Below are positions 8,024 through 63,158 of a stretch of 64,000 nt of DNA, one piece after another. The position numbers and the translations under genes were made by a program. Position 1 is the stretch's first letter. Every line of letters starts with the position of its first letter. The stretch comes from a virus, in the IMG/VR virus record IMGVR_UViG_3300043313_001099, positions 1 to 64,000 of that record, one strand, 5' to 3'. The notes beneath the pieces are model-generated. The model worked only from the letters and a program-made list of their open reading frames with translations. It made no database searches and was not told the DNA's origin.

Positions 8024-8064
8024 TTGACACGAGGTTGACCGAGAGGTAATCTGGTGTCAGTAAG
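8024..8064 (+). promoter_or_regulatory. Repeat promoter P1
   Basis: TTGACA cgaggttgaccgagagg TAATCT ggtgtca GTAAG. Confidence 0.85.
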
Positions 8065-8090
8065 TCACCCCCGACACAAGGGAGCACGCA

Positions 8091-8357
8091 ATGCCCGAGC
8101 TCAACGCCATGGAGATCCTCACCCGGAAGTTCCGCGACAACGACGGGATCACCCTCGCGCTCAGCGGCGTAGAGCAGCACTACCTCGTGATGGAGCTCGG
8201 CGGCGCACTGGAGAGCCTGTTCGGCGACGACGACACGTACACCCGAAAGCTCACCGGCCCCGCCCGCGACGAGGCCCAGTTTCTCGCCGGCCTCCTGACC
8301 CGACTCCTGGATGCTGCCGACGCGGCCTCCGACGAGCCGGACGAGATGCGCGTCTGA
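8091..8357 (+). CDS. Small acidic hypothetical protein
   Basis: Downstream of P1 with GGGAG RBS. Confidence 0.7.
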   Translation: MPELNAMEILTRKFRDNDGITLALSGVEQHYLVMELGGALESLFGDDDTYTRKLTGPARDEAQFLAGLLTRLLDAADAASDEPDEMRV

Positions 8358-8370
8358 TCCCCCGCCCGGT

Positions 8371-8404
8371 CGCCGCGCCCCTACTCCCGCCGAGGGGCGG
8401 GGCG
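8371..8404 (+). terminator. GC-rich hairpin between the P1 and P2 cassettes
   Basis: cgccgcgcccct ... aggggcggggcg (one mismatch). Confidence 0.5.
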
Positions 8405-8430
8405 CAGTGCAGATTCGCCAGTCTCCCCTA

Positions 8431-8459
8431 TTGACACGAGGTTAGCCGGGAGGTAACTT
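8431..8459 (+). promoter_or_regulatory. Repeat promoter P2 (leaderless, ATG 8467)
   Basis: TTGACA cgaggttagccgggagg TAACTT, then 7 nt to ATG. Confidence 0.85.
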
Positions 8460-8466
8460 AATGGGT

Positions 8467-8814
8467 ATGACATCCCCCGCCGCCACCGCCCACGCCACCC
8501 TCCTCCAGATGGTCGAGGCCACCGACACCGCCACGGCGCTCGCCCTGGCCGAGACACTGCGCGGCGCGACGCTCATCGCCGCCGAGGCGCTCATCGGCAG
8601 TGCGGTCGGCGGCCGAGTGTCCAGCCGCCGCCGGCACATCGCCAACTGGACCATCCTGAACGCCCTCAACTCCGCCGCCCTCCGGTTCTCCACCGCCGGA
8701 TGGGGCAGGTACATGGACGCGGCGGAGGCGGCGCACCGCACCGCCGACGCGGCCGAGTTCCTGGCCGGCCACCGGGCAACCCGCCGCGCCCTCCTGAACG
8801 GGGCGCAGGCATGA
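8467..8814 (+). CDS. Hypothetical protein
   Basis: Leaderless from P2; ATGA overlap with the next gene. Confidence 0.65.
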   Translation: MTSPAATAHATLLQMVEATDTATALALAETLRGATLIAAEALIGSAVGGRVSSRRRHIANWTILNALNSAALRFSTAGWGRYMDAAEAAHRTADAAEFLAGHRATRRALLNGAQA

Positions 8815-9047
8815 GCCGCGCCGAGACGGCCGAAAGCCTGGTCACCGCCGCCTTCGTAGTCGTCCGGCGCGCACGCAGCTCCGGATGCAGCAACCTGATC
8901 ACCAACCTGTGCATCCAGGAGATCGCGGAGACCCGCCGCATCCCCGGCGACGCCTACTCCCTGGCGACCTGCCGCCGCATCGCCCGGGAGCGCGCCCGCC
9001 TCATGGGAGAGGAGGAGCTCCTGGCCACCGAGATGTGGAAGCGCTGA
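8811..9047 (+). CDS. Hypothetical protein (MSRAETAESLV...)
   Basis: ATGA coupling. Confidence 0.6.
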   Translation: MSRAETAESLVTAAFVVVRRARSSGCSNLITNLCIQEIAETRRIPGDAYSLATCRRIARERARLMGEEELLATEMWKR

Positions 9048-9074
9048 CCGCACCAACCGACAAGGAGAACACGC

Positions 9075-9335
9075 ATGGCCCGCTGGAACTACACCCTCCA
9101 CCTCAAGGACTTCTTCCACGACGAGACCCTGACCTTCCCCGAATGGCGCGACCGCGTGGTGAACCGCGTGCGCAGCACCACCTGGTACAAGGCCACCAGC
9201 ACCGCCGGTGACCCGTGCCTGGCGGACATCGTGGGAGAGCTGGCCGACACCCAGGACCGGCGGGAATTCGATCAGGTGTTCGCCGCCGTCTACGACCAGG
9301 CCGACTACGACCGCTGCTGGATCGAGACCCGCTGA
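9075..9335 (+). CDS. Small phage protein
   Basis: AAGGAG RBS; W...L.LKD...FD.....YD.AD..RCWI pattern seen in small phage proteins. Confidence 0.7.
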   Translation: MARWNYTLHLKDFFHDETLTFPEWRDRVVNRVRSTTWYKATSTAGDPCLADIVGELADTQDRREFDQVFAAVYDQADYDRCWIETR

Positions 9336-9422
9336 CCGGACAGCCCGGCCGACCGGTCAGCCCTCCGATTCTGGCCGGTTCCCAGGCCCGCCCGGCCTAC
9401 CCCGACAGGAAGGATTCCGAGC

Positions 9423-9701
9423 ATGAGTAGTACCCCAACGTTCCCGGCAACCGGCAGATGCCGGTCCTGCCGCGCACCCCTCATCTGGGCCACCACCAGC
9501 AAGGGCAAGCTGATGCCCGTGGATGCCGAGCCGACCCCTGACGGCAACCTGATCCTCACCGCCTCCCCCGGTGGGGCCGCACCGACCGTAATCGTCCTCG
9601 CCTCCGCCGAGCTGCCCATCATCGAGGGCGAGCGGCGGAAGCCACACAAGGCCACCTGCCCGGACGCCGCCGCCTGGCAGACGCGCACCCGGACCGCCTG
9701 A
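9423..9701 (+). CDS. Zn-finger phage protein
   Basis: CRSCRAPLIW...GKLMPVDAEP..DGN...H.ATCP. Confidence 0.75.
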   Translation: MSSTPTFPATGRCRSCRAPLIWATTSKGKLMPVDAEPTPDGNLILTASPGGAAPTVIVLASAELPIIEGERRKPHKATCPDAAAWQTRTRTA

Positions 9702-9723
9702 TCACCGAGAGGACCGAGTAGAC

Positions 9724-9909
9724 GTGACGCGACTGCTGGTGACGCTGACCAACGGCGTTGAGCTCGTGAGTCGCCTGCCCGTCCACCTGGACGAGGAGGA
9801 GCTACTGGATGACCTGCGGCAGAACCGGCCGCTGATCATCCGGGGCAGGGATGGTGAGCGGACAATCGTGCCGGTCACGGCAATCCTGCACATCCGGCCG
9901 GCCGAGTAA
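9724..9909 (+). CDS. Hypothetical protein
   Basis: GAGG RBS; in the operon run. Confidence 0.5.
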   Translation: MTRLLVTLTNGVELVSRLPVHLDEEELLDDLRQNRPLIIRGRDGERTIVPVTAILHIRPAE

Positions 9910-9939
9910 TAGACCCCACGAAACCGTTTGGAGACACCG

Positions 9940-10203
9940 ATGGACGAGAGGTTTCATGCCGGATCCGCCCACTTCACTACTGCTGAGAAGTGGCTGGCGA
10001 GGGCTGAGGAGGAGTACGCCAAGAGTTCCTGGTACCCGAAGGACAAGGCGACAGTGGCAACGGAGATTGCCATGGTTCACGCGCTCCTGGCACAGGCAGC
10101 CGCTACCGCAGAGCTGAACGCGCTGAGCATTTCGGGTGAGCTGGTCACCGGCCGGGACTCGAACCAGACTGCGGCCTGGAGCAAGGTGATCGGCCGTGGC
10201 TGA
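9940..10203 (+). CDS. Hypothetical protein
   Basis: GGAG RBS before ATG 9940; overlaps the next start. Confidence 0.55.
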   Translation: MDERFHAGSAHFTTAEKWLARAEEEYAKSSWYPKDKATVATEIAMVHALLAQAAATAELNALSISGELVTGRDSNQTAAWSKVIGRG

Positions 10204-10456
10204 CCCGTTCATCCCTGTGGCGACGGAGCCCGTCACGCCGGACCGGCTCGGGGTTGGTGACAAGATCGAGGACCCGCGCGGAGACACCTACTTCGTACAC
10301 AGCGTGCACCGTGCCGGCGACGATTACGTGGTCGGCCTAGTCGAGTACCCGGGGCATCCGACCGTGTGGGACACCACCCTCCGCCCTCGGGACACCGTGA
10401 CCCGCATCCTGGTGGACGGGTCGCCCGCCCCCCGGATGCCCGGCTCCCACATCTGA
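10196..10456 (+). CDS. Small beta-rich hypothetical protein
   Basis: 8-bp overlap with the upstream gene. Confidence 0.55.
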   Translation: MADPFIPVATEPVTPDRLGVGDKIEDPRGDTYFVHSVHRAGDDYVVGLVEYPGHPTVWDTTLRPRDTVTRILVDGSPAPRMPGSHI

Positions 10457-10474
10457 CGCCAGAGGAGGCACCAA

Positions 10475-10708
10475 ATGCGAACCCTTGCCTTCGTAACGCT
10501 TACCCCGGACGGGAAGATCATGGACACGTCAACCGTGACCATCAACGGTCAGACCGCACCAGTCCCGCTCTGGACCCGGACCGGGGTACGGGCCGCCCCG
10601 CCCCGAATTGGGCAGGCCATCGCGGACCTCGGGTACCGCGCCCCTGACTACTACGGCACGATCACCGACATCCCCGGCGGCAGTACCATCGAAGTTGTCC
10701 CGGCCTGA
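10475..10708 (+). CDS. Hypothetical protein
   Basis: GGAGG RBS; ends just before a terminator. Confidence 0.6.
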   Translation: MRTLAFVTLTPDGKIMDTSTVTINGQTAPVPLWTRTGVRAAPPRIGQAIADLGYRAPDYYGTITDIPGGSTIEVVPA

Positions 10709-10711
10709 ACG

Positions 10712-10764
10712 CACGAAAGCGCCCCGCCTCCCGGCCAACAGGCCAGGGGCGGGGCGCTTTCGTG
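10712..10764. terminator. Bidirectional intrinsic terminator between the accessory operon and the late operon
   Basis: CACGAAAGCGCCCCGCC ... GGCGGGGCGCTTTCGTG, 17-bp perfect stem between convergent genes. Confidence 0.85.
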
Positions 10765-10775
10765 TGAGGCGGGCG

Positions 10776-11621
10776 TCAGCGGGCAGCTTCAGCCTTGTAC
10801 GCGGCCGTCTCCGGGGGGAACTCCTCCAGCGGGTAGTAGAGGGTGGCTGACGTGCCGGGAGCACACCACCACGCCACCGACCGGCAGCCGTTCCGCCGCA
10901 GGTACGCGACACAGGCCGTGATCCAGGCCGCGCGGGCGGGAGACCGGGACGTGTCCCGGGTACCGTCCGCCTTGAGAGGCAGGATCGCGCCCAGCTCGGA
11001 CACGATCAGAGGGACACCGGCCTCGGCCGCCGCAGAGAACGGCAGGGCGAAGAACGAGGCGGGATCCTCGTACCGGGCCTGCTCGTCGTAGCAGTCCCAG
11101 CCCATGTAGTCCCCGACGCCCGGCCACCACTGGTGCCAGTCGCCCTTGTGGCGCGACCAGTACAGGGTGTGAATCGGGACCAGCTTGAACAATGAGCGCC
11201 GAGGATGCCCGGCCGCCCACTGCCAGAGGAGCTGCCAGTTCGCCCGGTACGTGGCCGCATCGAGGTCGCCCTCGGGCTCGTGGTGGTAGGTGACCCAGAT
11301 CTGCCGCCAGGTCGACGGCGCGGCCGACAGCCAGGCCAGGAACGCGGTCTTGGTCGGCATGTCCTTGAAGGACGGGTGAGGAATCCAGGTCGCCGGCACA
11401 GAGGCCAGCACGCCGGTCCACGGGGGCAGCCCTGCACCCTCCTTGGAGAACAGGCGGGTCGGCCCGGTCAGCCCGGGAAACAGGCTCTTGTGGGAGGTCA
11501 GCGCTGCGGCGGTACCCGGGGTGTCGACCCCGACCAGCATCCGGGGCCGCACGATGGCGGTCCCGGACGCGGGTACGACGGTGCCGTTGGGCAGGGTGAC
11601 CGCTCCGGAGAACGTCACCAT
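10776..11621 (-). CDS. Clan GH-A (GH26-like) glycoside hydrolase
   Basis: TYHHEPE acid/base motif, YMGWDCY, LIVSELG nucleophile motif. Confidence 0.7.
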   Translation of the reverse strand: MVTFSGAVTLPNGTVVPASGTAIVRPRMLVGVDTPGTAAALTSHKSLFPGLTGPTRLFSKEGAGLPPWTGVLASVPATWIPHPSFKDMPTKTAFLAWLSAAPSTWRQIWVTYHHEPEGDLDAATYRANWQLLWQWAAGHPRRSLFKLVPIHTLYWSRHKGDWHQWWPGVGDYMGWDCYDEQARYEDPASFFALPFSAAAEAGVPLIVSELGAILPLKADGTRDTSRSPARAAWITACVAYLRRNGCRSVAWWCAPGTSATLYYPLEEFPPETAAYKAEAAR

Positions 11622-11628
11622 CCGGGCC

Positions 11629-11910
11629 TCAGCCGGCCGGAGTGGCGTGGAACATGGCCGGGTTGTCCGGGTCCTGGAGGACCACGTACCCCGGGGCGGA
11701 GAACGCCCCGTAGCGCCCGCCCGGGATGGTGACGTGGGCCGTGCCCGACGCCTCGAAGCTGCCGAGGCCGGGCACAGCGACGGAACCGGTGAAGGTCACA
11801 TCCTTGACCTGTGCGTCCATGTTGGCGTCGACCTCCACGGTGAAGGTGATCGGGTCACCCTCGGTGTAGGTGGCGTCGGGGGCGTCGAAGCGGAGGGTTG
11901 CGGTGGTCAC
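11629..11910 (-). CDS. Small beta-rich hypothetical protein
   Basis: AGGAG RBS; in the late operon. Confidence 0.6.
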   Translation of the reverse strand: MTTATLRFDAPDATYTEGDPITFTVEVDANMDAQVKDVTFTGSVAVPGLGSFEASGTAHVTIPGGRYGAFSAPGYVVLQDPDNPAMFHATPAG

Positions 11911-11961
11911 GGAGCTCCTGTCCTGTGCGATGAGTGGATGTCGGGGATGGGCGGAGGGGTG

Positions 11962-12318
11962 TTACCGGCTGAGCCCGGCGGTGCGCCGGCCGGACAGCGA
12001 CGGGGCCTTGCCCACGGACAGCACGGTCAGCGCGGCGAGGATGAGCTCCGTCAGGTCGCCGGAGTCGATCCCGCCGACGATTGCCGTCGCGGCCACGTTC
12101 AGCACCGCCAGGAACAGGGCGATCACGGTCTTGACCCACGGCCACTGCGGCATGCTTGGGAACAGGTACACCGCAAAGGCGGTCACGGCGGCGATGGCCA
12201 CCTGGATGCCCTCCTGCTGGGTCAGGTGCCCGTCCGAGATGAGGGCCTGCGTGGCGGTCACGACCGCGAACAGGAACGCCCAGAGCGACTTGCCGTACCG
12301 CGAGTAGAACTCGGACAT
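11962..12318 (-). CDS. Holin
   Basis: 118 aa, about 4 TM helices, basic C-terminus, in the lysis cassette. Confidence 0.75.
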   Translation of the reverse strand: MSEFYSRYGKSLWAFLFAVVTATQALISDGHLTQQEGIQVAIAAVTAFAVYLFPSMPQWPWVKTVIALFLAVLNVAATAIVGGIDSGDLTELILAALTVLSVGKAPSLSGRRTAGLSR

Positions 12319-12327
12319 GAGAGCCTC

Positions 12328-13224: not shown

Positions 13225-13303
13225 AGGGGTTACCTCCGTATGGGCGCAGGGCTGCCCACCCGCCAGCGGGACGCTGGGCGGGCCGGGCGGGCAGGATGAG
13301 GGG

Positions 13304-15142: not shown

Positions 15143-15149
15143 CGCTCCC

Positions 15150-39329: not shown

Positions 39330-40117
39330 ATCGGCCGCCCTTCGCTGAGCCAGAGGAGGAAGCCCCAGTCCGTCGTGTGCTCGTGGAGGTACCAGCGGTA
39401 GCGGACCAGAAGGGCCTCGATCTCCTGGTCCGTGATGCGCAGGTTCATCTTGCCGATGCGGACCACGGTCGTCGTGTCGCCGGACGCGCCCTCGGACTGC
39501 TGCCGTTCGGGGGCGGCGAAGGCGGGCACGCCGGCCAGCTCCGGGTCGTCGTCAGCAGCCGGCGCGGCCGGGCCTGCGCCAGGCATGGGGGCCGGCTGGC
39601 CGGGGACCGGGGCGGGCGGGGTGGCCGGGGAGGCCGGCGCGGCTTCACGCGGGTCTGGGTCGCCCCAGCCGGCGTCATCCTGGCCCCGGTACAGGGCGCG
39701 GTGCGCCTCTGCCTCGTCGGCCGCCAGGAGCGCGGTCACGTCCTCCCCGGTGTACCCGGTTGCCGCGAAGTCGTCCGCGTCCCGGAGGAGCGCAACGAGG
39801 GCGGCGGTGTCGTAGTCAGCGAGGTCGGAGGAGCGGTTGTCAACCAGGGCGATGCGCTTGGCCTCAGCGTCGGTGCAGGTGATGACCTCGCAGCGGGCGG
39901 TGGTGGCGCGGCCGAGCTCGCAGATGGCCTGGTACGTGTTGTTGCCGACGAGGATGACCAGCGCGTCCCCGGTGTCCCGGACGGTGAGCGCCCGGTACTG
40001 CCCGTTGGCCGTGAGGCTGGCCTTGATGACGGGGATGTCGCCGCGTCGGGCGTTGCCGGGGAGCTGTGTGAGCTGGTCGAGGGGGATCTCGCGGGTCTCG
40101 ACGTAGATGGCGGCCAT
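39326..40117 (-). CDS. ParB/Srx-like N-terminal domain protein
   Basis: PGNARRGD...I.ASL..NGQY, ILVGN, RIALVDNR. Confidence 0.8.
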   Translation of the reverse strand: MAAIYVETREIPLDQLTQLPGNARRGDIPVIKASLTANGQYRALTVRDTGDALVILVGNNTYQAICELGRATTARCEVITCTDAEAKRIALVDNRSSDLADYDTAALVALLRDADDFAATGYTGEDVTALLAADEAEAHRALYRGQDDAGWGDPDPREAAPASPATPPAPVPGQPAPMPGAGPAAPAADDDPELAGVPAFAAPERQQSEGASGDTTTVVRIGKMNLRITDQEIEALLVRYRWYLHEHTTDWGFLLWLSEGRPM

Positions 40118-40145
40118 GCTGCGTACCTTCCATGCAGATCAGGAG

Positions 40146-40187
40146 TTGACACGAGGTTACCCGTGCGCGTAACCTTAGGGATGTAAG
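40146..40187 (+). promoter_or_regulatory. Repeat promoter P3
   Basis: TTGACA cgaggttacccgtgcgcg TAACCT tagggat GTAAG; internal inverted repeat AGGTTAC-N8-GTAACCT. Confidence 0.85.
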
Positions 40188-40219
40188 CGAGTTACCCCGA
40201 CAGGAAAGCAGGCACCGGC

Positions 40220-40414
40220 ATGGGACGAAGCAACTACGGCGCGCAGGGCACCCTCTCCGCCTCCGGCATCAAGTGGACCGTCAGCCTCCGGGACACGACG
40301 ATCACCGTGACCGCCAGCGGCAGCCCGGACTCGACCTCCATGTACTGGACCCCCAACGACGCCTACACGGCATACACCCACCTGGTGACCGCGCTCACCA
40401 ACGTCAGCGAGTAG
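40220..40414 (+). CDS. Small hypothetical protein
   Basis: Downstream of P3 and a CCCCGACAGGA motif. Confidence 0.6.
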   Translation: MGRSNYGAQGTLSASGIKWTVSLRDTTITVTASGSPDSTSMYWTPNDAYTAYTHLVTALTNVSE

Positions 40415-40417
40415 GCC

Positions 40418-40636
40418 ATGACCACGGAGCCCCTCAACTGGCGCGTCAAGTCCGGCCACCTGGTCGACGGGATGGTCCGCTGGACTGTCATCATCGACGG
40501 CTGCTCCCTCACCATCGAGGAGGAGGGTGACCCGGTGACCGGGTACGACGAGATCACCCACTATTACGACACGCCGGAGGATGCCGACCGGGCGGGTGCT
40601 CGCGTTGCGGCCAGCCTGGAGGCGCGGAGCGTGTAG
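40418..40636 (+). CDS. Small acidic hypothetical protein
   Basis: Second gene of the P3 cassette. Confidence 0.6.
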   Translation: MTTEPLNWRVKSGHLVDGMVRWTVIIDGCSLTIEEEGDPVTGYDEITHYYDTPEDADRAGARVAASLEARSV

Positions 40637-40651
40637 CCGCCCAGCCAGTAC

Positions 40652-40694
40652 GACCACGCCGGCCCCTGGATCGCACCCAGGGGCCGGCGTGGTC
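40652..40694. terminator. Hairpin terminator between convergent genes
   Basis: GACCACGCCGGCCCCTGG/CCAGGGGCCGGCGTGGTC 18-bp perfect stem. Confidence 0.8.
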
Positions 40695-40865
40695 TGTCGG
40701 GGGATGGAAGTGTGGGCGCGGGCTGCCGGACTCCCCGAGGGGGTCAGGTCTGAGCTCCGCGCAGTAGCGGGCGTCCGACTCGAACGGCGTTTCCGGGTGC
40801 ATGATCCCGGCGTGGTTCCACTCCACTACGCCCGCGCTGGACCGGCAGAGGCCGGCCCGGGTCGA

Positions 40866-41429: not shown

Positions 41430-41828
41430 TCAAGTCCGGGTGAGTTCTCCGGCGCGTCGGGCGGCCAGGATCCGCACGATGGCCTTGACCTCCCCCACGT
41501 AGAACGCCGGGCGGTTGTCGGGGGTGAGGCCGCGCACCAGCAGGTGAACGCGGGTGGAGCCATCCGGCCCGATGACGCCTCGGCGTCGCCAGGACCGGAT
41601 GGTCTCCTCCTCTACGCCCGCCAGTTCGGCGGCGTCGGCGGTGCTGACGAGATCCTCGTCCGCATGGATGACCTGTCGGGGGATCAGCCATGTTTCACCC
41701 AGGGCCACGATGTGCCGGTCCAGTACGGCGCAGGTCTCAGGGTCAACGATCTGTAGCTGGTTCCGGTACAGCCGTGCTACTGACCGTGCGATGTTGACCT
41801 TGGTTCCACTACCGCCAGATTCGGACAC
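41430..41828 (-). CDS. HTH DNA-binding protein
   Basis: VSTADAAELAGVEEETIRSWRRRG. Confidence 0.65.
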   Translation of the reverse strand: MSESGGSGTKVNIARSVARLYRNQLQIVDPETCAVLDRHIVALGETWLIPRQVIHADEDLVSTADAAELAGVEEETIRSWRRRGVIGPDGSTRVHLLVRGLTPDNRPAFYVGEVKAIVRILAARRAGELTRT

Positions 41829-42239
41829 TTGGCCCCCGCCTTAGTGGTCTCTGTGATCACTCAGGCACCTCACTGTAACTTTCTACCCGCGCGTAACAAG
41901 CCTGTCATCTGGGCGACTTCTGGTGCCCAGTTGTAGAGAGCTAACGAACCTTTGGGCGGGCAGGTCAGACCGGGCGGTTAGTACAAGCGTTCGATACGGC
42001 GGAGGCGATATCTGAGCGTGACCACGACGCCTATCGAAGTATCGGGAGGGGGCGGCACGAGCATTGACCGGTTTCCAGATGATTGCCTGGGGATACCGTC
42101 CGGAAATCAACGGAATCGTCACCCTGGCCGGCCCGGCGCAGCGGAGCAGATCCGAACGGCCGGGTCCGCCCCCGAGGCCGAGCAAGACCGCAGAGAGGTT
42201 ACCGGCCGTTCAGTAGTGTTCTAAAACGGCAGGGCCCGA

Positions 42240-42824
42240 TTAGCCCTTTACCGCCTCGGCGCGGCCCAGTGCGCGGTAGACCGTGGAGCGAGCCACCCCG
42301 AACAACTCCGCAAGATCCGTCGATGTGTGTGCCCCCTCCTCGTGGAGCTTGACGAGGTGCGCCTCCTGTGCGGGGTTCAGCTTGGGGCGCTTCCCCCGCA
42401 GCCTCCCCTTGGAGCGGGCCACAGCCATCCCCTCCCGGGTGCGGAGCCGGATGAGGTCGAGCTCGAACTCCGCGAAGGTGGCCAGGATGTTGAAGAACAT
42501 CTTGCCCATGGGGTCGGCCGGGTCGTAGATGGAGCCTCCGAGGGAGAGTCGGACGCCCCGGGCGGTGAGGGAGTCTCCGATGTCGCGGGCGTCCGGTACG
42601 GAGCGGGCCAGGCGGTCCAGCTTGGGCACGACGAGGGTGTCTCCGGCGCGGCAGGCGGCGAGCGCTTCGCGGAGGCCGGGGCGTTCGCGGTTGGCTCCGG
42701 TGAGTCCGTGGTCGAGGTAGATGCGCTCCGCGTCCACGCCGAGCGCAGTGAGGGCGTCTCGCTGAGCGGTGAGGTCCTGTTCGTCGGTGGAGCATCGGGC
42801 GTACCCGATGAGAAGTCCGGCCAT
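42240..42824 (-). CDS. Small serine recombinase (resolvase) with C-terminal HTH (start ATG 42824)
   Basis: IGYARCST, GDTLVV.KLDRLARS, AEFE..LIR.RT.EG; leaderless, TACACT 7 nt upstream. Confidence 0.95.
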   Translation of the reverse strand: MAGLLIGYARCSTDEQDLTAQRDALTALGVDAERIYLDHGLTGANRERPGLREALAACRAGDTLVVPKLDRLARSVPDARDIGDSLTARGVRLSLGGSIYDPADPMGKMFFNILATFAEFELDLIRLRTREGMAVARSKGRLRGKRPKLNPAQEAHLVKLHEEGAHTSTDLAELFGVARSTVYRALGRAEAVKG

Positions 42825-42829
42825 GCCGA

Positions 42830-42960
42830 TCAGTGTACCGTTTAGCGCCCCCTGACCGGGCATATTTGGGGGCGGGTCTTACGGGACAGGGCCGACCAGG
42901 GCAGACGCCTCCCGGGCCACCCGGGCGAAGGTGTCCCGGTAGCCGATCCCCTTACGGACA
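42830..42960. promoter_or_regulatory. res-like multi-subsite resolution site overlapping the resolvase promoter
   Basis: TTACGGGACA 42879, TGTCCCGGTAG 42932, TTACGGACA 42952 (imperfect inverted half-sites). Confidence 0.6.
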
Positions 42961-44701: not shown

Positions 44702-44750
44702 ATGGCAATTTGCCATCGGTTTGCTATCCGCTTGCCATCGGGTTTGCTAC
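44702..44750 (+). repeat. Heptad array A1
   Basis: ATGGCAA-T-TTGCCAT, then TTGCTAT 44721, TTGCCAT 44732, TTGCTAC 44744. Confidence 0.9.
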
Positions 44751-44944
44751 GCGCCGGTCTGTCCGACTGTGGGCCAGGTGATCCACGGGCTGATCGGCCG
44801 GGGCGGGAGGGTGGTACGGACCCACAGAGGTTCGCGGGGGGCGTCGCCGGCCTCGATCCGTTCGGCCAGCTCAGCAAGGGTGCGTGCTTGCAGAGGAGCC
44901 GCGCGGTATGGCAATTTGCCATCGCCTTGCCATGTGGTTGTCAT
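44747..44944 (-). CDS. Small hypothetical protein flanked by arrays A1 and A2
   Basis: ATGA coupling to the upstream gene. Confidence 0.45.
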   Translation of the reverse strand: MTTTWQGDGKLPYRAAPLQARTLAELAERIEAGDAPREPLWVRTTLPPRPISPWITWPTVGQTGA

Positions 44945-44955
44945 TGCCTTGCCAT
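44908..44955 (+). repeat. Heptad array A2
   Basis: ATGGCAA-T-TTGCCAT, then TTGCCAT 44927, TTGTCAT 44938, TTGCCAT 44949. Confidence 0.9.
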
Positions 44956-46109: not shown

Positions 46110-46367
46110 ATGACGAGGATGCTGCGGGTCTCTGCCGACACCCATGAGAGGCTGCTCTCGCTGGTCCGGGCCGAGTACCCGGGCCGGACCGTGAACGATG
46201 TGCTCGGCGTGCTCCTCGATGAGCATTGGGAGCGGCAGGCCATCTTGGCTGTGGACTCCACGTCGGACGCCGAATGGGAGGGATGGCGGGCCGAGATGCG
46301 TGACCTTGACCGGCTCGGTAGCCCCGACGTTGACCCGTGGGTCCACTCCACGGAGCAGGCCGCGTGA
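46110..46367 (+). CDS. Antitoxin (RHH-like N-terminus, acidic C-terminus)
   Basis: MLRVSADTHERL; GTGA overlap with the toxin gene. Confidence 0.8.
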   Translation: MTRMLRVSADTHERLLSLVRAEYPGRTVNDVLGVLLDEHWERQAILAVDSTSDAEWEGWRAEMRDLDRLGSPDVDPWVHSTEQAA

Positions 46368-46699
46368 TCCCCGATCCGTGGACCGTGTGGTGGGCCGACC
46401 TCGACCCGACAGAAGGGCACGAGCAGGGTGGGCACCGGCCGGTCGTGGTGATCTCCTCCCCGCTGCATGTCCGCCTCACCCGGGGAGAGCTGGTCACGGT
46501 CGCGCCGATCACCAGCCGCGACCGGCCGACCTGGCTGCACCGGGTACCCGTCGTCACGCCCCGGGGAACCTCGTACGTGGTAGCCGAGCAGCTCCGCAGC
46601 ATCGCGGTTGCCCGGTTGGGTGACCGGCCAGCCTGGCGGCTCACCCCGCACGAGGCGGCGGCGGTACGGCAGGTCCTCCGGCGCATGGTGGACTTCTGA
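46364..46699 (+). CDS. mazF: MazF/PemK family endoribonuclease toxin
   Basis: WWADLDPTEGHEQGGHRPVVVIS, VAPITS, EQLRSI...RL. Confidence 0.92.
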   Translation: MIPDPWTVWWADLDPTEGHEQGGHRPVVVISSPLHVRLTRGELVTVAPITSRDRPTWLHRVPVVTPRGTSYVVAEQLRSIAVARLGDRPAWRLTPHEAAAVRQVLRRMVDF

Positions 46700-51700: not shown

Positions 51701-51742
51701 CTTACGTCTACTAGGTTACTCCTCGGCTAGACGTAGTGTCAA
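51701..51742 (-). promoter_or_regulatory. Repeat promoter P4 (variant spacer)
   Basis: TTGACA ctacgtctagccgaggag TAACCT agtagac GTAAG. Confidence 0.8.
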
Positions 51743-52742: not shown

Positions 52743-52783
52743 CTTACAGACACGAGGTTACGCGCCCTGATACCTCGTGTCAA
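52743..52783 (-). promoter_or_regulatory. Repeat promoter P5 (fully symmetric copy)
   Basis: TTGACA cgaggtatcagggcgcg TAACCT cgtgtct GTAAG; perfect inverted repeat GACACGAGGT-N13-ACCTCGTGTC. Confidence 0.9.
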
Positions 52784-52806: not shown

Positions 52807-52842
52807 AGCAGCGCCCCCGCCGTGATCGACGGGGGCGCTGCT
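52807..52842 (-). terminator. Hairpin upstream of P5
   Basis: AGCAGCGCCCCCG/CGGGGGCGCTGCT. Confidence 0.7.
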
Positions 52843-56249: not shown

Positions 56250-56297
56250 ATGGCAATTTGCCATCGTCTTGCCATTGTCTTGCCATCTGGTTGCTAC
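56250..56297 (+). repeat. Heptad array A3
   Basis: ATGGCAA-T-TTGCCAT, then TTGCCAT 56269 and 56280, TTGCTAC 56291. Confidence 0.9.
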
Positions 56298-57249: not shown

Positions 57250-57329
57250 GCTGAACTCCTGTCGGGGAGGAGGGGCGGTCGGTACCCCGGCGGGCGGTGC
57301 GTCACCCGGCCAGGGGGATCTGAGGGCGT

Positions 57330-58135: not shown

Positions 58136-58166
58136 GGTGGGCTCCTGTCCGGGGGAAGCGGTGTGC

Positions 58167-58208
58167 CTTACTGACACGAGGTTACCGCACGGCTAGCCCT
58201 GGTGTCAA
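58167..58208 (-). promoter_or_regulatory. Repeat promoter P6
   Basis: TTGACA ccagggctagccgtgcgg TAACCT cgtgtca GTAAG; hairpin 58215-58240 just upstream. Confidence 0.85.
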
Positions 58209-58254
58209 CCACTGAGGGGGCGGAGTCTCCCCCGCCCCCTTTGGCTTGGCCCGC

Positions 58255-59238
58255 TCAGCCGTTCTTGATCTTCCGGGCCACCCGGGCGGCCAGGCTGGCG
58301 ACTACCTCGTCAACCGTGCGGTTCGACTTCGCGGCCAGGGCCTCGGCCAGGATGAGGGCGTTGGCGCGGTGCTCGGCGTGGTTGGCCGGGTTGCTCCAGG
58401 AGTACCCCGGGGCGGCGGCCTCCTCGACGTACAGGATCTCTGCGGCCCGGACGGTGCGGATGGTCTCGTACCCGACCTTGAGCACGCCCCCGTCCGGAGC
58501 GGCGATCAGCTTGGGGTCCTCGGTGCGGGCCTTGCGCTCGGCGGCCAGCTCGTACGCCCGGTTGGTGTGCTTCCGCAGGCCGCCGCCGTGGGTGGCCGCT
58601 ACGGCGCGCGCCCCGCAAACCTCGCAGTCGCCGGTGTAGCTCATGCCGTACGTGCGGTAGTTGACGCCGGTCCGGTTGCTGCACTTGCTCGGGTCCTCGA
58701 CCTCAGTGCGGCCGGCGGTCCAGGAGAGCGGGGCGGAGGGGAAGCAGACCGTGCAGAGGATCGGGCCGAGGGCGTTGACCGCCTCCTGCTCGGTCAGGCC
58801 GGACAGCTCCGGATTCCAACCGAACTCGGTGGCGTTGACGCCCCGGTTGCAGGTCTGGCAGTTCATGGAGCGGTGGATGTGGCCGTTGTTCTGCTGGACG
58901 GTGAAGAACCGCGACCAGCCTCCCCGGCGGAGGTACTCGGCGTGCAGCGGCTCAGCCTTGGCCAGGATGGCGTCCAGCTCGGCGCGGGCCTTGCCGTAGG
59001 CGGCGAGGGCGGCGGCAACCTGGCCGGACGTGGCCTCCAGTGCGCGGGCCTTGTCCAGGGCTTCGGCGTCGGTGGTCGGCCAGCCCTTCCGCTTGCTCCA
59101 GGGGTCCTGCTTCTCACCGAGGGCGCGGTGGATGGTGTTGACCCGGCTGGCCACCCGGCCGCGTGCGCCGCTCTCCTGGCGGTAGAGGTCTGCGAGCTGG
59201 GTGTCGATCTCGGCGGGGGTGGCGGTCCGAATGTTCAT
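58255..59238 (-). CDS. Zn-binding actinophage protein (327 aa)
   Basis: WSRFF.V..NNGHIH....C.TC, LCTVCFPSAP, CEVCG. Confidence 0.75.
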   Translation of the reverse strand: MNIRTATPAEIDTQLADLYRQESGARGRVASRVNTIHRALGEKQDPWSKRKGWPTTDAEALDKARALEATSGQVAAALAAYGKARAELDAILAKAEPLHAEYLRRGGWSRFFTVQQNNGHIHRSMNCQTCNRGVNATEFGWNPELSGLTEQEAVNALGPILCTVCFPSAPLSWTAGRTEVEDPSKCSNRTGVNYRTYGMSYTGDCEVCGARAVAATHGGGLRKHTNRAYELAAERKARTEDPKLIAAPDGGVLKVGYETIRTVRAAEILYVEEAAAPGYSWSNPANHAEHRANALILAEALAAKSNRTVDEVVASLAARVARKIKNG

Positions 59239-59271
59239 GCTGGGCTCCTGTCGGGGGAGGGTGTCGCGTCG

Positions 59272-59313
59272 CTTGCATCTACTACGTTAGAGGACGAGGT
59301 AACCTCGTGTCAA
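59272..59313 (-). promoter_or_regulatory. Repeat promoter P7
   Basis: TTGACA cgaggttacctcgtcctc TAACGT agtagat GCAAG; internal palindrome ACGAGGT-N-ACCTCGT. Confidence 0.85.
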
Positions 59314-59370
59314 TAGGGAATCTCGACAGGTGCCCCCACCTGCCCATACTCTGCCAAGGCACCCCCCCGA

Positions 59371-59407
59371 GCTCCGGCCGCCCCGACCCGAGGAGGGCGG
59401 CCGGAGC
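59371..59407 (-). terminator. Hairpin upstream of P7
   Basis: GCTCCGGCCGCCC/GGGCGGCCGGAGC. Confidence 0.7.
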
Positions 59408-59412
59408 CCCGG

Positions 59413-59772
59413 TCACGCCCGGGGGCTGACCACGTGGGAGATGTGAAGCTGCGCCTCCAAGGCGGAGTACCGACCCAGCGCGCGACCCTCGGCGTACGGC
59501 AGGAACCGGTCAACGACGTGCCCCAGGGCGTGCAGGTAGGAGTACGCCCCGAGGATGGTGTTGCCCCCCAACAGCACCTCGAACCCGTGGTTCTCGATCT
59601 CCTCCACCGTCAGGCCGAGCTCCTCGGCACGCATCCGGACCTGGACCATGGCCGGGGTGTACTCCGGCCCGTAGGTCAGCTCGGCCGGCGAGCGGTAGCC
59701 GGCCAGCAGGGTGCTGGTGTGGGCGTCGGTCAAGGAGGGGGTGGTGTTGGTGGTAGCGGTGGTGGTGTTCAT
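59413..59772 (-). CDS. Hypothetical protein
   Basis: Single gene under P8; AGGAGG RBS. Confidence 0.7.
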   Translation of the reverse strand: MNTTTATTNTTPSLTDAHTSTLLAGYRSPAELTYGPEYTPAMVQVRMRAEELGLTVEEIENHGFEVLLGGNTILGAYSYLHALGHVVDRFLPYAEGRALGRYSALEAQLHISHVVSPRA

Positions 59773-59807
59773 GGCCCCTCCTAGGGGTAAGAGGTAAGGC
59801 GGAGTGC

Positions 59808-59848
59808 CTTACCTCCACTAAGTTACGCGCTCGATAACCTCGTGTCAA
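59808..59848 (-). promoter_or_regulatory. Repeat promoter P8
   Basis: TTGACA cgaggttatcgagcgcg TAACTT agtggag GTAAG; 10-bp hairpin 59791-59815 at the predicted +1. Confidence 0.85.
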
Positions 59849-59987
59849 CTTCCCCTTATTCACCCAGGTCAAGCGGCTTCATGGCTGGTCTCCCTACGTG
59901 GACAGGGGGGCGGGTACGTACACTAGGTTACCCGCCCGTGGCGTCTACGTCTACAGGGTTACCGGCCGAACTTCCTTCCGGCGCTTA

Positions 59988-60016
59988 TTGACATTGGGTT
60001 TTGCGTGGCGTAACGT
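59988..60016 (+). promoter_or_regulatory. Repeat promoter P9 (degenerate spacer), divergent from P8
   Basis: TTGACA ttgggttttgcgtggcg TAACGT ggtgtcc. Confidence 0.75.
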
Positions 60017-60050
60017 GGTGTCCAGTCACATCCCCCGAGAAAGGCACACG

Positions 60051-60803
60051 ATGACCACGGACGACGCTGACAAGGCCAAAATGCTCGACCGCATTCGGAA
60101 ACTCCTGGCCAAGGCGGAAGACCCGGCCGCCACCACGGGCGAGGCAGAGACGTACACGGCGAAGGCCACCGAGCTGATCGCCAAGTACGGCATCGACCAG
60201 GCGCTCCTGGCCGCGTCCGGCGTGACGCGGAGCACCATCGGCAACCGGATCGTCACGGTTGACTCCCCGTACTCGTACGCCAAGGCGCTCCTGCTGTACC
60301 GCCTGGTCGAGGCGCTGGGCGGCGAAGCCATCATGATGACGAACCGGCGCGGCACGGCCACGGGCGGAGTCCGCAAGGTCCACATCTTCGGGTACGACTC
60401 CGACCTGGAGCGTGCGGAGCTGCTCTACACCTCGCTCCTGGTTCAGCTCTCCTTCGCCATGCTGGCGGGGATCCCGGAGCCGGGCGAGGGCATCAAGGAG
60501 TGGAGGCGCTCGTTCATCATCGGCTTCACTGAGCGCGTTGTGGCGCGGGTAAGGGAGGCCGAGGAGGCGGCGCACCGGCAGGCGGACCGGGAGCGCACGA
60601 GTGGCCCCTCGACGGATCTGGTCCTGGTCGACCGGGCCAAGCTGGTCCGCCGGGAGTTCATGCAGGTGTACCCGAGCGTCCGAACGACCTCAATGAGCGC
60701 GGGCACCTCGGGCATGGACGCTGGCCGGGCGGCCGGGAACCGGGCCAGTCTGGGCGGTACCCGGGTGGGCAGCGGAGCGGGGCGGCCGGCGCTGGGTCGG
60801 TAG
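60051..60803 (+). CDS. DUF2786 domain protein (start ATG 60051)
   Basis: MLDRIRKLLAKAE....T.GEAE....KA.EL.AKYGID; FG..SD....E.LYTSL; RRSF..GF. Confidence 0.88.
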   Translation: MTTDDADKAKMLDRIRKLLAKAEDPAATTGEAETYTAKATELIAKYGIDQALLAASGVTRSTIGNRIVTVDSPYSYAKALLLYRLVEALGGEAIMMTNRRGTATGGVRKVHIFGYDSDLERAELLYTSLLVQLSFAMLAGIPEPGEGIKEWRRSFIIGFTERVVARVREAEEAAHRQADRERTSGPSTDLVLVDRAKLVRREFMQVYPSVRTTSMSAGTSGMDAGRAAGNRASLGGTRVGSGAGRPALGR

Positions 60804-60815
60804 TCCGCGCGGAGT

Positions 60816-60843
60816 GGTGGCCCTGCCGAGAGGCGGGGCCACC
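60816..60843 (+). terminator. Hairpin upstream of P10
   Basis: GGTGGCCCTGCC/GGCGGGGCCACC. Confidence 0.65.
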
Positions 60844-60872
60844 TGCCGTTTCGGGGGGTTCCCAATCAGGAC

Positions 60873-60913
60873 TTGACACGAGGTTAGTCGGGGCGTAACC
60901 TTGTGGTTGTAAG
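60873..60913 (+). promoter_or_regulatory. Repeat promoter P10
   Basis: TTGACA cgaggttagtcggggcg TAACCT tgtggtt GTAAG. Confidence 0.9.
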
Positions 60914-60940
60914 GCACACCGACCAACCACGGAGGCCAGC

Positions 60941-61303
60941 ATGACCGCACCAGCCACCACCCTCCGACTCCCCCGCCTCTACTGGGACACCGCCCTGATC
61001 ATCGACGGAGACCACGCCTGGCTCCAGGGTCCGGCCGGCTACCCGATCCCAACCGCGACCGGCCCCCGCTGCGGAAACTGCGACGGGAAGCGTCACGCCT
61101 CCGCTACCGCGATCCGGCACTGCTACGAGAACTCCCGGATGCAGGACGAGGCCGCTGAGGCGGACTACCGGCACGAGCAGTACTGCGAGCGGGCATGGGA
61201 GAGCCGGTTCTCCGTCCAGATGCAGTACGAGTTGGATCTGGAGCAGCAGGTCACGGGCCGACACTGGTCCGACACGGGCCACGGCGAGCCGTACCAGTAC
61301 TGA
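60941..61303 (+). CDS. Zn-binding hypothetical protein
   Basis: CGNC...H......R.C; GGAGG RBS. Confidence 0.7.
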   Translation: MTAPATTLRLPRLYWDTALIIDGDHAWLQGPAGYPIPTATGPRCGNCDGKRHASATAIRHCYENSRMQDEAAEADYRHEQYCERAWESRFSVQMQYELDLEQQVTGRHWSDTGHGEPYQY

Positions 61304-61399
61304 CCGCCCCCGGTCCGGGCAACCGGGATGGGACGTGAGCCGCGAGGCCGCGTCCCGTCCGGGGCCGCCCGGCCCTACCCCGACGAGAGAGGTTCCACC

Positions 61400-61675
61400 A
61401 TGTCCGACGAGACCACGACCGCCATCAGCCGTGGAGACGCCCGCCAGTACCTGGAGGTCATGCGGCAGATGCCCTACGCCGCCAACATCGTCCCCCGGAT
61501 CAACCTCGACACCCTGACTTTCGGCCAGATCATCGACCACATGGGGGAGCTGGCCGCCCGACTTGCCGAGGTCGGCAAGCGGGACGCGCGGCAGTCTATC
61601 GAGTTGGCCGAGGCCAAGGCCGTACTCAAGGGTGGCCGCGACCTGTTCGCCTACCTGTCCCGGCAGGAGGGCTGA
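61400..61675 (+). CDS. Hypothetical protein (start ATG 61400)
   Basis: CCCCGACGAGAGAGG start motif. Confidence 0.65.
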   Translation: MSDETTTAISRGDARQYLEVMRQMPYAANIVPRINLDTLTFGQIIDHMGELAARLAEVGKRDARQSIELAEAKAVLKGGRDLFAYLSRQEG

Positions 61676-61731
61676 CCGCTGCGCTTCCGGCCGGCATGTA
61701 CCAGCGACGTGCCGGCGCGGTGGCCAACCGG

Positions 61732-61755
61732 CCGACACCGACACCGACACCGACA
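61732..61755 (+). repeat. CCGACA x4 tandem repeat immediately before a GAGGAG RBS
   Basis: Read directly. Confidence 0.85.
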
Positions 61756-61768
61756 CCGAGGAGTGAGC

Positions 61769-62080
61769 ATGGGACCGTACTGCCGCTACTGTGACCGGCG
61801 CTGCTTCGTGGAGCGCATCCTGCACGATGACCAGTGGTCGCTGCTCGCCACCTGCGAGGCCGGCATGGAGCACGACCGGGAGCGGGTCGGGGAGGATCAC
61901 GTCACCGCCCGCAACCCGCGCAACCCGGACAGCATGGCCGGCCGCCGCCGCTCCCCCGCCTGGATCCGGTACTACCGGAACCACCCCGAGGTCTCCGCGA
62001 CCTGGGGCGAACAGAACGGCCGGGAGCCGACCTGCACCTGCGCGGCCTGCTCCCCCGTCAACGCCGGCCCGACCGGGTGA
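61769..62080 (+). CDS. Cys-rich hypothetical protein
   Basis: MGPYCRYCDRRCFV...LATC..G...DR; CTCAAC. Confidence 0.7.
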   Translation: MGPYCRYCDRRCFVERILHDDQWSLLATCEAGMEHDRERVGEDHVTARNPRNPDSMAGRRRSPAWIRYYRNHPEVSATWGEQNGREPTCTCAACSPVNAGPTG

Positions 62081-62151
62081 CCGGAGTGGCGCGCGGCCCC
62101 GGTCGCGTACCGCTCCGGCCACCCGGCCGGCACCCGACAGGAGGGACCAGC

Positions 62152-62490
62152 ATGGAGATCATCACCGGCAGTACCCCGCTCACGGACGAGGAGGCGGGGG
62201 AGCTCCACCACGTCATGTACCGGATGCCAATGGGGGCGGTCGGCGTCGACCTGGCCCGGCTCCAGCCCACAACCGCGCGTCCGGTCACGGCGGCCGACGT
62301 CGTTCACGTCCTCAACCAGTTGCGGAACGAGGCAACCGCCTTCGTCTCCTCCGCGACCACCTGCCGCGACGAGGTGAAGTGGTGGCGGGACTGGTACCGC
62401 CGGCAGGTGGAGGCCGGCATCCAGTTGCCGGAGATGCCCCTGCTCGGCAGCGAGCCGCCGCCCCCGGCCGACGACGAGGTGGCGCGGTGA
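62152..62490 (+). CDS. Hypothetical protein (start ATG 62152)
   Basis: CCCGACAGGAG start motif. Confidence 0.65.
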   Translation: MEIITGSTPLTDEEAGELHHVMYRMPMGAVGVDLARLQPTTARPVTAADVVHVLNQLRNEATAFVSSATTCRDEVKWWRDWYRRQVEAGIQLPEMPLLGSEPPPPADDEVAR

Positions 62491-62687
62491 AGATCAGCGT
62501 GCCACTGGTCATCGAGGTCGACCCCCGCGAGTGGAACTGCGGCGAGTTCGCCGGCCTGACCGGTCGGGAGCTGGCCGAGGCTGTGCGCGAGGACGTGCGC
62601 CGGTACGTGGAGTACTCGGTGCAGGGCCTGAACCTCCTGAGCGAGGCGGACGCCCGGGTCAACCGGGTCCGCGTCCGGGGGCGCTGA
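62487..62687 (+). CDS. Small hypothetical protein
   Basis: GTGA coupling; hairpin 62710-62740 follows. Confidence 0.6.
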   Translation: MKISVPLVIEVDPREWNCGEFAGLTGRELAEAVREDVRRYVEYSVQGLNLLSEADARVNRVRVRGR

Positions 62688-62770
62688 GGCTCTCTCCAAC
62701 CGCTCTGCAACGCCCCGTCAGGCCCCGGCCGGCGGGGCGTCCTGCTGTCTCCCCGGGAGGGGTTCGCCCG

Positions 62771-63049
62771 ATGGCAAAATTCCGGCGCGGCACCCCCTCT
62801 GACCTGGGATGGAATGGCAATTTGCTATCGGGTTGATGGCAACGCTATGGCAGGCATTATGGCAAACGTGTTTTGCCATTCGGTTAAATACAGGTTCGCG
62901 CCCTACCGATCGACACATGCCTAGACAGGTATAAGTGATTGCCGTCACAGGTGTCATGGTTTCCGCAGGTCAGAGGGCCTATCAGGGCATGGCAATTTGC
63001 CATCGTCTTGCCATCCGGTTGATAGCAAAGCGATGGCAAGTCATAGCGA
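62771..63049. repeat. Heptad arrays A4 (62814-62879) and A5 (62989-63049) with a 12-bp inverted repeat
   Basis: About 12 ATGGCAA/TTGCCAT-type heptads in both orientations; CCCTCTGACCTG 62795 / CAGGTCAGAGGG 62966. Confidence 0.85.
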
Positions 63050-63117
63050 TTACCCATACCTATTAAGTACAAAGTCAAAGGCATTATTCGTCCGGCCTGT
63101 CGGCCAGACACTCCCCT

Positions 63118-63158
63118 TTGACACTGGCGAACCTCTCCGGTAACGTCGTATGCGTAAG
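63118..63158 (+). promoter_or_regulatory. Repeat promoter P11 (variant spacer)
   Basis: TTGACA ctggcgaacctctccgg TAACGT cgtatgc GTAAG. Confidence 0.8.

Follow-up and report, generated by a model that had tools for sequence, protein, structure and literature searches.

Introduction

Among Microbacterium phages, genomes of cluster EC carry an 18-bp motif in 12 copies and those of cluster EI a 30-bp motif in five (Jacobs-Sera et al. 2020; PMC7302621). These motifs are co-oriented, lie in short intergenic gaps 21–30 bp upstream of start codons and were not described as promoters, their function being called unclear (PMC7302621). Cluster A mycobacteriophages, known from L5 gp71 and from the TipsytheTRex repressor's structure, carry more than 20 asymmetric 13-mers, some of them on early promoters, and their repressor is a monomer of about 180 amino acids (aa) with two DNA-binding domains (PMC9283540). 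The C1 repressor of the plasmid prophage P1 has 22 dispersed asymmetric 17-bp operators (PMC8546580). Here we analysed a family of 14 predicted promoters in an uncultured actinophage (IMG/VR record IMGVR_UViG_3300043313_001099, hereafter G000), a 75,461-bp virus contig of about 70% G+C whose first 64 kb (64,000 nucleotides) form the window. We lean towards reading the family as early promoters served by the host, on which a 13-mer would be the operator of a phage protein.

The locus shares features with each of these systems. By the definition used for the EC and EI motifs (at least five co-oriented intergenic copies upstream of start codons), G000 carries 14. As with L5 gp71, the repeated site is an asymmetric 13-mer in many copies, and a candidate regulator of the XRE family (170 aa) is of similar size to the cluster A repressor. 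However, most sites in L5 are stoperators that lie within transcription units and share the direction of transcription, whereas all copies but one in G000 lie inside promoters, in both orientations; no integrase was found in G000. P1 C1 likewise has a single operator specificity spread over many promoters of the whole genome. P1 has paired operators as well, and single and paired sites are mixed as in G000. The host phylum and the operator sequence differ from those of P1. Of plasmid-type features, a resolvase, a TraB-like ATPase, a PemK-family match and repeat arrays were seen in G000, and no C1-, Coi- or Lxc-like genes and no ParA were found. In phage lambda, the divergent control region has sigma-70 promoters whose −35 and −10 boxes are overlapped by the dyad-symmetric repressor sites of OR and OL. 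There, 2–3 regulated promoters have tandem 17-bp operators, whereas G000 has 14 promoters with one site each, and its half-sites fall on the two hexamers, about 22 bp from one another. The principle of dispersed operators on early promoters is known, and the layout in G000 is new.

A family of 14 predicted promoters

An earlier note on the window, made from the letters alone, listed eleven promoters of the form TTGACA-N17/18-TAAC(C/G/T)T, one of them with TAATCT instead. We recovered 11 matches to TTGACA-N17/18-TAANNT in the window, in exact agreement on positions and strands and with 0.00 expected by chance, and located three further members beyond it on the plus strand, at 64665, 67878 and 73103, bringing the family to 14 in the contig. 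The exact 12-mer TTGACACGAGGT, reported for seven of the promoters, occurred seven times in the same places, and 0 of 100 dinucleotide-preserving shuffles gave any match to it or to the two-box pattern. The pentamer GYAAG, reported 7 nt past the −10 box at nine sites, was likewise found, eight times as TAACNT-N7-GYAAG (0.02 expected) and once behind the TAATCT box at 8047. All matches to TTGAC-N16-19-TAnnnT in the G000 genome are the 14 family members, and allowing one −35 mismatch added only two intergenic matches, at 59323 and 59899 on the plus strand, neither with the family flanks.

The cassettes share the core TTGACA(C), 17 or 18 nt, (G)TAA(C/T)NT. The −35 box is exactly TTGACA and the −10 box TAA(C/T)NT in all 14, with a spacer of 17 nt at nine sites and 18 nt at five; 7 nt past the −10 box stands G(T/C)AAG in 9/14 and a purine in 13/14. 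Every member is intergenic and co-oriented with a downstream open reading frame (ORF) whose start codon lies 10–50 nt past the −10 box; where a leader with a Shine-Dalgarno sequence precedes it, the start codon is 31–50 nt on, the ribosome-binding block often being CCCCGACAGGAG. The flanks, which include CGAGGTTA, are conserved while the central spacer is variable, indicating selection on specific positions and cassettes that are not recent duplicates. GC-rich hairpins stand directly upstream of five promoters (52783c, 58208c, 60873, 64665 and 8024). RNA folding showed the leaders to be no more structured than shuffled controls, except that of 59848c (z = −4.8), and there was no conserved structure. 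A generic promoter and terminator scan missed the family, because TAACCT matches only 3/6 positions of TATAAT. Judged from their sequence, the 14 elements are very probably promoters, strong and of the primary-sigma type.

The family heads about 75 ORFs, which are all the non-virion genes, with a member in front of every non-virion transcription unit, and no member was found inside the virion/lysis operon at 10.7–40.1 kb. Five members serve the minus arm and eight the plus arm, with P59848c and P59988 arranged back to back at a distance of 140 bp. P40146 stands out from the rest: it faces away from the first late gene and is placed to drive two small ORFs, in a unit that ends at a hairpin with a 20-bp stem. 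The element-wide regulon of the earlier note is retained as a primary-sigma-type promoter set heading all non-virion genes; its control by a single dimeric repressor is not supported.

A 13-mer on the −35 box, on the −10 box or on both

The 13-mer TGACACGAGGTTA overlaps the −35 box (left arm, promoter positions 2–14), and its inverse covers the −10 box through +1; the −35 flank is thus the reverse complement of the −10 box and its downstream flank, TAACCTCGTGTCA. With ≤2 mismatches the 13-mer occurs 11 times in the window against 0.54 expected, inverted copies at 8047-8059, 52748-52760 and 58172-58184 included. The claim that the promoter boxes form the arms of an inverted repeat holds as far as complementarity goes, the best palindrome lying at 52748-52782, but it describes the family consensus and not every site.

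To describe single sites, we counted the matches of each arm out of 13 (left/right), where 8–9 is what the hexamers alone give. Both arms reach at least 11/13 only at 8024 and 52783c. A partial second arm (9–10/13) is present at 58208c, 67878 and 59988, the left arm only at five promoters (8431, 40146, 59313c, 59848c and 60873), and no arm beyond the hexamers at four (51742c, 63118, 64665 and 73103). In total the 13-mer sits on the −35 box in seven promoters and, inverted, on the −10/+1 region in five, with one orphan copy in the central control region, so that ten of the 14 promoters and the orphan site carry the specificity. Outside the promoters we found, besides the orphan, two 1-mismatch matches inside ORFs, which are probably chance; both orientations occur.

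The element behaves as a 13-mer able to sit on the −35 box, on −10/+1 or on both, and an obligate two-arm site does not fit. One dimer seated over both boxes, as had been proposed, suits only 2–5 of the 14 sites, five having a single half-site and four none; the data agree no less well with a protein that reads one asymmetric 13-mer. For the extra conserved 13-mer the best reading is a protein operator, and we predict it to be a likely operator for a phage protein. We also considered the two-arm sites as bidirectional promoters and rejected this, the reverse strand having no usable −10 box on reading the sequence.

Members of the family

The two sites with strong arms on both sides are P8024 and P52783c. 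P8024 (8024..8064, plus strand; arms 12/11) has its −35 box at 8024-8029, a 17-nt spacer, TAATCT at 8047-8052 and GTAAG at 8060-8064, and heads the ORF at 8091-8357. P52783c (52743..52783, minus strand; 11/12) has the most complete palindrome of the family and a hairpin with a 16-bp stem upstream, at 52807-52842. The right arm is perfect in P58208c (58167..58208, minus strand; 9/13), with a hairpin upstream at 58215-58240, and P67878 (plus strand, beyond the window) scores 9/12.

Left-arm members include P8431 (8431..8469, plus strand; 13/7), where the ATG of the ORF at 8467-8814 is the eighth nucleotide past the −10 box, exactly where the G of GTAAG falls elsewhere. That ORF has good third-position G+C support, and an ATG at the predicted +1 supports the start position and predicts that the P8431 transcript is leaderless. 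P40146 (40146..40187, plus strand; 13/7) has its −35 box 28 nt from the ATG at 40117 (minus strand) of the late operon and precedes ORFs 40220-40414 and 40418-40636. In P59313c (59272..59313, minus strand; 13/7), which heads ORF 58255-59238, an inverted ACCTCGT right after the left arm makes a compact local palindrome. P60873 (60873..60913, plus strand; 13/9) follows a hairpin with a 12-bp stem at 60816-60843 and heads an operon with an Lsr2-like gene (61769-62080).

Without family arms, P51742c (51701..51742, minus strand; 9/8) has its own 8-bp inverted repeat, TACGTCTA/TAGACGTA, and heads an operon of small ORFs from 51.7 to about 40.9 kb. P63118 (63118..63158, plus strand; 8/9) heads the DUF3560 gene and lies downstream of TTGCCAT arrays at 62771-63040; P64665 (8/9) and P73103 (8/8) lie beyond the window on the plus strand. 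The central divergent pair consists of the leftward P59848c (59808..59848, minus strand; 13/8) and the rightward P59988 (59988..60024, plus strand; 9/10), which has weak arms and heads the DUF2786 gene. Between them lies the orphan half-site ACACTAGGTTA (59920..59930, plus strand), which has no −35 box, and TACGTCTA recurs at 59946.

The same core in unrelated phages

A scan of IMG/VR with the core alone (TTGACA-N17/18-TAACNT-N7-GTAAG) returned single matches at about the chance number and one contig with several, IMGVR_UViG_3300014968_000012 (G006), an uncultured phage of 87,249 bp, 99% complete and 71% G+C. It carries 14 cassettes of the form TTGACA-N18-TA(A/T)CGT, with G as the eighth nucleotide past the −10 box in 13/14 and G(T/C)AAG in 8/14, a conserved leader, and a divergent pair midway through the early region. 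Its palindrome, ACAGTGTSG-N4-CSACACTGT at promoter positions 4–12 and 17–25, is different from and cleaner than that of G000 and, unlike it, lies in the spacer; MarR-like and integrase-N-domain matches also set G006 apart. The two proteomes match only in TerL (35%) and a ParB-like protein (30%), and no sigma or XRE gene was found in G006. The core common to both is therefore independent of the G000 sigma factor and of any phage protein that the two share, and fits host polymerase, and a different palindrome on the same core in an unrelated phage supports the operator reading. On the sequences compared, the palindrome would be an exchangeable, phage-private module, as repressor–operator specificities behave.

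Two further details of G006 concern the cassettes themselves: extra partial operator copies (GTTACAGTGCCGC) stand just upstream of the −35 boxes of P58719c and P60719, and in 5–6 cassettes the 7 nt past the −10 box (TTCTCTC) are complementary to the ribosome-binding block GAGAGGGA. The G006 operator was in no other IMG/VR contig. The strict G000 pattern gave only isolated chance matches in 185,579 species genomes, IMG/VR and JGI metagenomes, in sources that share no proteins with G000, and the exact 14-mer gave only single, chance matches in low-GC contigs of IMG/VR. No match was obtained by blastn of single cassettes against cultured phages. The core occurred twice in 401 evenly sampled Actinomycetota genomes as compared with nine times in G000, in agreement with the expectation that the motif is not common in host chromosomes.

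We then read the EC/EI motifs in context. In Quhwah (MH271321, 2732-45604), the motif makes up the −10/+1 portion of a longer unit, CTAACCnnGATTAGACA-N18-TAGACT-N6-GTAAGC, with a C/A-rich leader after it; a TAGACA −35 box stands 18 nt upstream of the −10 box, and the palindrome CTAACCnnGATTAG overlaps that −35 box. The motif of MementoMori (MH271303) is also the −10/+1 part of a larger cassette, with GTAAGC past the −10 box, a C/A-rich leader, a related palindrome and a weaker −35 box. These motifs look like promoter–operator–leader units, and Quhwah shares with G000 the layout of promoter, GTAAG start and leader. Unlike in G000, the −35 box in EC/EI phages is weaker, the palindrome is another one, and copies also lie inside the structural module; few proteins are common to them and G000 (TerL, SSB, a DUF2786 protein and an HNH protein). 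The EC/EI phages are lytic and have small sigma genes unrelated to that of G000.

Candidate regulators

A gene for an extracytoplasmic function (ECF)-type sigma factor (Sigma70_r2 + r4; 253..852, plus strand) is followed at once by the gene of the XRE-family helix-turn-helix (HTH) protein (852..1364, plus strand), the stop of the first adjacent to the start of the second. The position right behind an ECF sigma gene is usually occupied by an anti-sigma gene. The earlier note had named the XRE protein, as a double-XRE protein, a candidate binder of the promoters. One HTH, at residues 106–156, is supported by profiles, but the second was not confirmed, and the protein stays a candidate only. It matches generic HTH profiles alone, and its AlphaFold model (predicted local distance difference test score, pLDDT, of 45) was unusable. 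We regard it as a doubtful candidate for the operator binder. The other DNA-binding candidates in G000 are a MerR/HTH_17-like protein, an Lsr2-like protein and the HTH of a resolvase, and none of the four is linked to the 13-mer site. The Lsr2-like DNA-bridging protein (61769-62080; PHROG 9947, E = 3e-12), encoded in the P60873 operon, could also act on the family promoters, the most AT-rich spots of this 70% G+C genome.

ECF promoters have a GGAAC-like −35 and a CGT-like −10 box, and the family boxes (TTGACA, TAACNT) do not follow this pattern. We infer that the G000 sigma is a late-gene factor and not the reader of the promoter family.

Genome layout and contig ends

Genes were called by third-position G+C and annotated with Pfam and PHROGs. 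The genome is laid out as two arms diverging from the back-to-back promoter pair at 59.85–59.99 kb. Leftward, 59.8–40.9 kb holds about 45 small minus-strand ORFs, mostly of no known family (a Pfam search of ten of these early ORFs at 43–50 kb gave no matches), followed by the siphovirus-type virion/lysis operon, which occupies the minus strand between 40117, where it begins, and about 10.8 kb (about 30 kb) and encodes ParB-like, TerL, portal, MuF, major capsid, tape measure and Sipho_Gp37 tail proteins and a GH25 lysin. Rightward, the plus-strand arm from 59.99 kb encodes DUF2786, Lsr2-like and DUF3560 proteins, an AAA_24 ATPase, a UvrD helicase, HNH and RusA proteins, SSB, and DnaD-like and DnaC-like proteins; past the overlap of the contig ends described below, it continues with the sigma and XRE genes, DUF2637, a TraB/FtsK-like ATPase and small ORFs to 10.7 kb. 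In this last part (1997-7485), the DUF2637 protein, together with a P-loop protein of 691 aa that has weak FtsK/TraB and winged-helix matches, resembles a Streptomyces-type module for double-stranded DNA transfer.

An exact 70-nt repeat stands at the start of the contig and near its end (1-70 = 75209-75278), and the final 183 nt beyond it diverge; that diverged end holds a 60-aa ORF resembling the C-terminus of RecX. The record is classed by IMG/VR as linear and not as a provirus, with a CheckV completeness estimate of 92%, and no integrase was found, so we preferred self-overlap to att sites of an integration into recX. The repeat would then mark where a circular or permuted genome of about 75.2 kb, with a variant end, overlaps itself.

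The junction of early and late minus-strand genes (40118-40865) contains P40146, two small paralogous plus-strand ORFs, a hairpin and a tRNA-like gene (40766-40835, minus strand) with a 4-base anticodon call. The hairpin (40652-40694, 20-bp stem), which separates the P40146 unit from the early genes of the minus strand, is probably a bidirectional terminator. A late promoter must lie in 40118-40865, or else the late genes must depend on antitermination.

At 41430-42863 (minus strand), a stretch in which the third-position-G+C caller put no ORF, a 207-aa serine recombinase (Resolvase + HTH_7; 42240-42863) adjoins a 132-aa HTH_17/MerR-like protein (41430-41828); the pair could be a dimer-resolution, inversion or mobile module, and this small resolvase is the only recombinase found. 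Two overlapping plus-strand ORFs of 85 and 111 aa at 46110-46699, amid minus-strand genes, have the size and arrangement of a toxin–antitoxin pair. A PemK/MazF match (E = 4e-21) is present in the G000 proteome and is not assigned to a particular ORF. Arrays of the heptamer TTGCCAT at 44702-44955, 56250-56286 and 62771-63040, headed by the palindrome ATGGCAATTTGCCAT (four exact copies and one variant), may bind a second regulator or act as iterons or a centromere; the last of them lies directly upstream of the operator-less P63118.

The phage is present in several soil metagenomes at low depth. Its terminase is closest to those of Micrococcales phages (42–57% identity); its identity to phages of Brevibacterium, Arthrobacter and Glutamicibacter does not exceed 57%. 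Stretches of 22 kb and 24 kb, run by megablast against the phage collection, gave no close relatives, the promoter family is absent from the capsid relatives G001, G003 and G005, and no Rfam family matched.

Discussion

On balance, we favour host-read early promoters with a 13-mer operator for a phage protein as the explanation of the family. Upon DNA entry, host RNA polymerase with its primary sigma factor would read the family promoters and start at the purine 8 nt past the −10 box. One phage-encoded, sequence-specific protein would bind the 13-mer in competition with RNA polymerase, repressing ten of the 14 promoters, and the four arm-less promoters would escape. In the most speculative step, the arm-less P73103 would drive the replication-initiation genes and then, across the self-overlap, the ECF sigma and XRE genes. 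As the circuit we would tentatively prefer a timer, in which early transcription yields the sigma factor together with a repressor (for which the XRE protein comes first among the candidates); the repressor would close the early promoters as the sigma factor switches on the virion operon. The same parts might alternatively keep up a carrier state of plasmid type, in the manner of C1 in P1, and we consider a carrier-state repressor rather unlikely. In a soil RNA library, short contigs that match exactly lie downstream of P51742c, P59313c, P59988 and P60873, and no contig spans a promoter (44–64 kb examined), which is weakly compatible with this explanation.

Several points weigh against it. The RNA-library contigs may be contaminating DNA and are too scarce and too short to mark transcript starts, and the continuity from P73103 to the sigma gene depends on the 70-nt repeat being a self-overlap. 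Strong arms on both sides occur at only two promoters, four promoters have no arm, and left and right arms show no within-site covariation (permutation p = 0.81). No repressor was identified, and neither an integrase nor ParA nor a CI-like repressor was detected among about 100 ORFs. Homologues of the XRE protein, like those of ORF 58255-59238, were sought and none found, and the XRE protein is for this reason only a candidate. For a late promoter that the ECF sigma might read, a dyad search for a second promoter family gave GC-rich hairpins only, which makes the timer a conjecture.

A rival reading is plain, strong, constitutive early promoters without a dedicated regulator, in which conservation outside the hexamers would reflect strength determinants (extended −35, discriminator, initial transcribed sequence) or shared cassette descent and the palindrome would be a by-product. 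Four armless members and the missing covariation suit this, as do the absence of an identified repressor, similar unexplained cassettes in lytic Microbacterium phages that have no repressor, and a TAACNT −10 box and GYAAG start that also occur in an unrelated phage and hence do not belong to the operator. However, the 13-mer stands inverted past the −10 box at five promoters, where no role in sigma recognition is known, one copy has no −35 box at all, two flanks conserved independently would have a negligible chance of being reverse complements over 13 nt, and the cleaner 9+4+9 palindrome of G006 on the same core is the pattern expected of exchangeable repressor specificities. We consider plain promoters an unlikely account. 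Dispersed operators at most early promoters would also be expected if a single dimeric maintenance repressor, for example the XRE protein, silenced the regulon in a lysogen or plasmid carrier and all promoters fired once infection or conjugation brought the DNA into a repressor-free cell. P1, a plasmid prophage with 22 asymmetric operators (PMC8546580), is a precedent, and plasmid-like genes are present (the TraB/FtsK-like ATPase with DUF2637, the resolvase, the MazF/PemK-family match, the Lsr2-like gene and iteron-like TTGCCAT arrays). Yet only 2–5 of the 14 sites could seat a dimer over both boxes, and the candidate has no promoter of its own and would be co-transcribed with the replication initiators and sigma from an operator-less promoter, which is unfit for quiescence. 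Release on entry into a naive cell, as the earlier note had it, presumes a carrier state for which no integrase, ParA or CI/C1-like protein was detected, and that part of the note is not supported; we rate such a maintenance repressor as improbable.

Two further readings are highly unlikely in our judgement. The phage's own sigma factor (253-852), instead of the host's primary one, might read the family: the gene is present, and EC and EI phages with related cassettes carry small sigma genes. But the factor is of ECF type and TTGACA/TAnnnT boxes are not ECF-like, the EC/EI sigma proteins are unrelated to it, G006 has the same core and no sigma gene, and the scheme is circular, the sigma gene itself lying downstream of the family member P73103. 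The inverted repeat might instead act as nucleic-acid structure and not as a protein site, whether as an RNA hairpin for termination or processing of read-through transcripts or as a DNA cruciform. The 13-nt arms at 52783c, 58208c, 8024 and 67878 and the 9-nt arms of G006 could indeed fold in read-through transcripts, but most G000 members are single-armed, strong separate hairpins already stand upstream of several promoters, structure in the leaders does not exceed that of shuffled controls, and no U-tract follows the repeat.

From sequence alone, the analysis yields a complete transcription-unit map for an uncultured actinophage of 75 kb, with testable predictions, and the promoters are a very strong, host-type set for high-GC Actinobacteria with natural operator variants, possibly useful as genetic parts. 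The comparison with G006 and the EC/EI phages suggests that motifs of unclear function are promoter–operator–leader cassettes, and since EC/EI phages have laboratory hosts this is directly testable. Its most interesting by-product is a core promoter and start motif common to unrelated actinophages. Soil actinophages of unrelated lineages could conceivably share a modular promoter grammar, a fixed core with a palindromic operator private to each phage, an idea we hold with some doubt. The fixed part may consist of TTGACA, 17/18 nt, TAACNT, G(T/C)AAG 7 nt on and an unstructured C/A-rich leader, and may be almost absent from host chromosomes. In the G000 version the same 13-mer may be the −35 box one way and the −10/+1 cover the other way, so that one protein could block either polymerase-binding step. 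If true, such a grammar would explain the repeat motifs of several cultured actinophage clusters, and immunity or timing groups would be readable from sequence alone.

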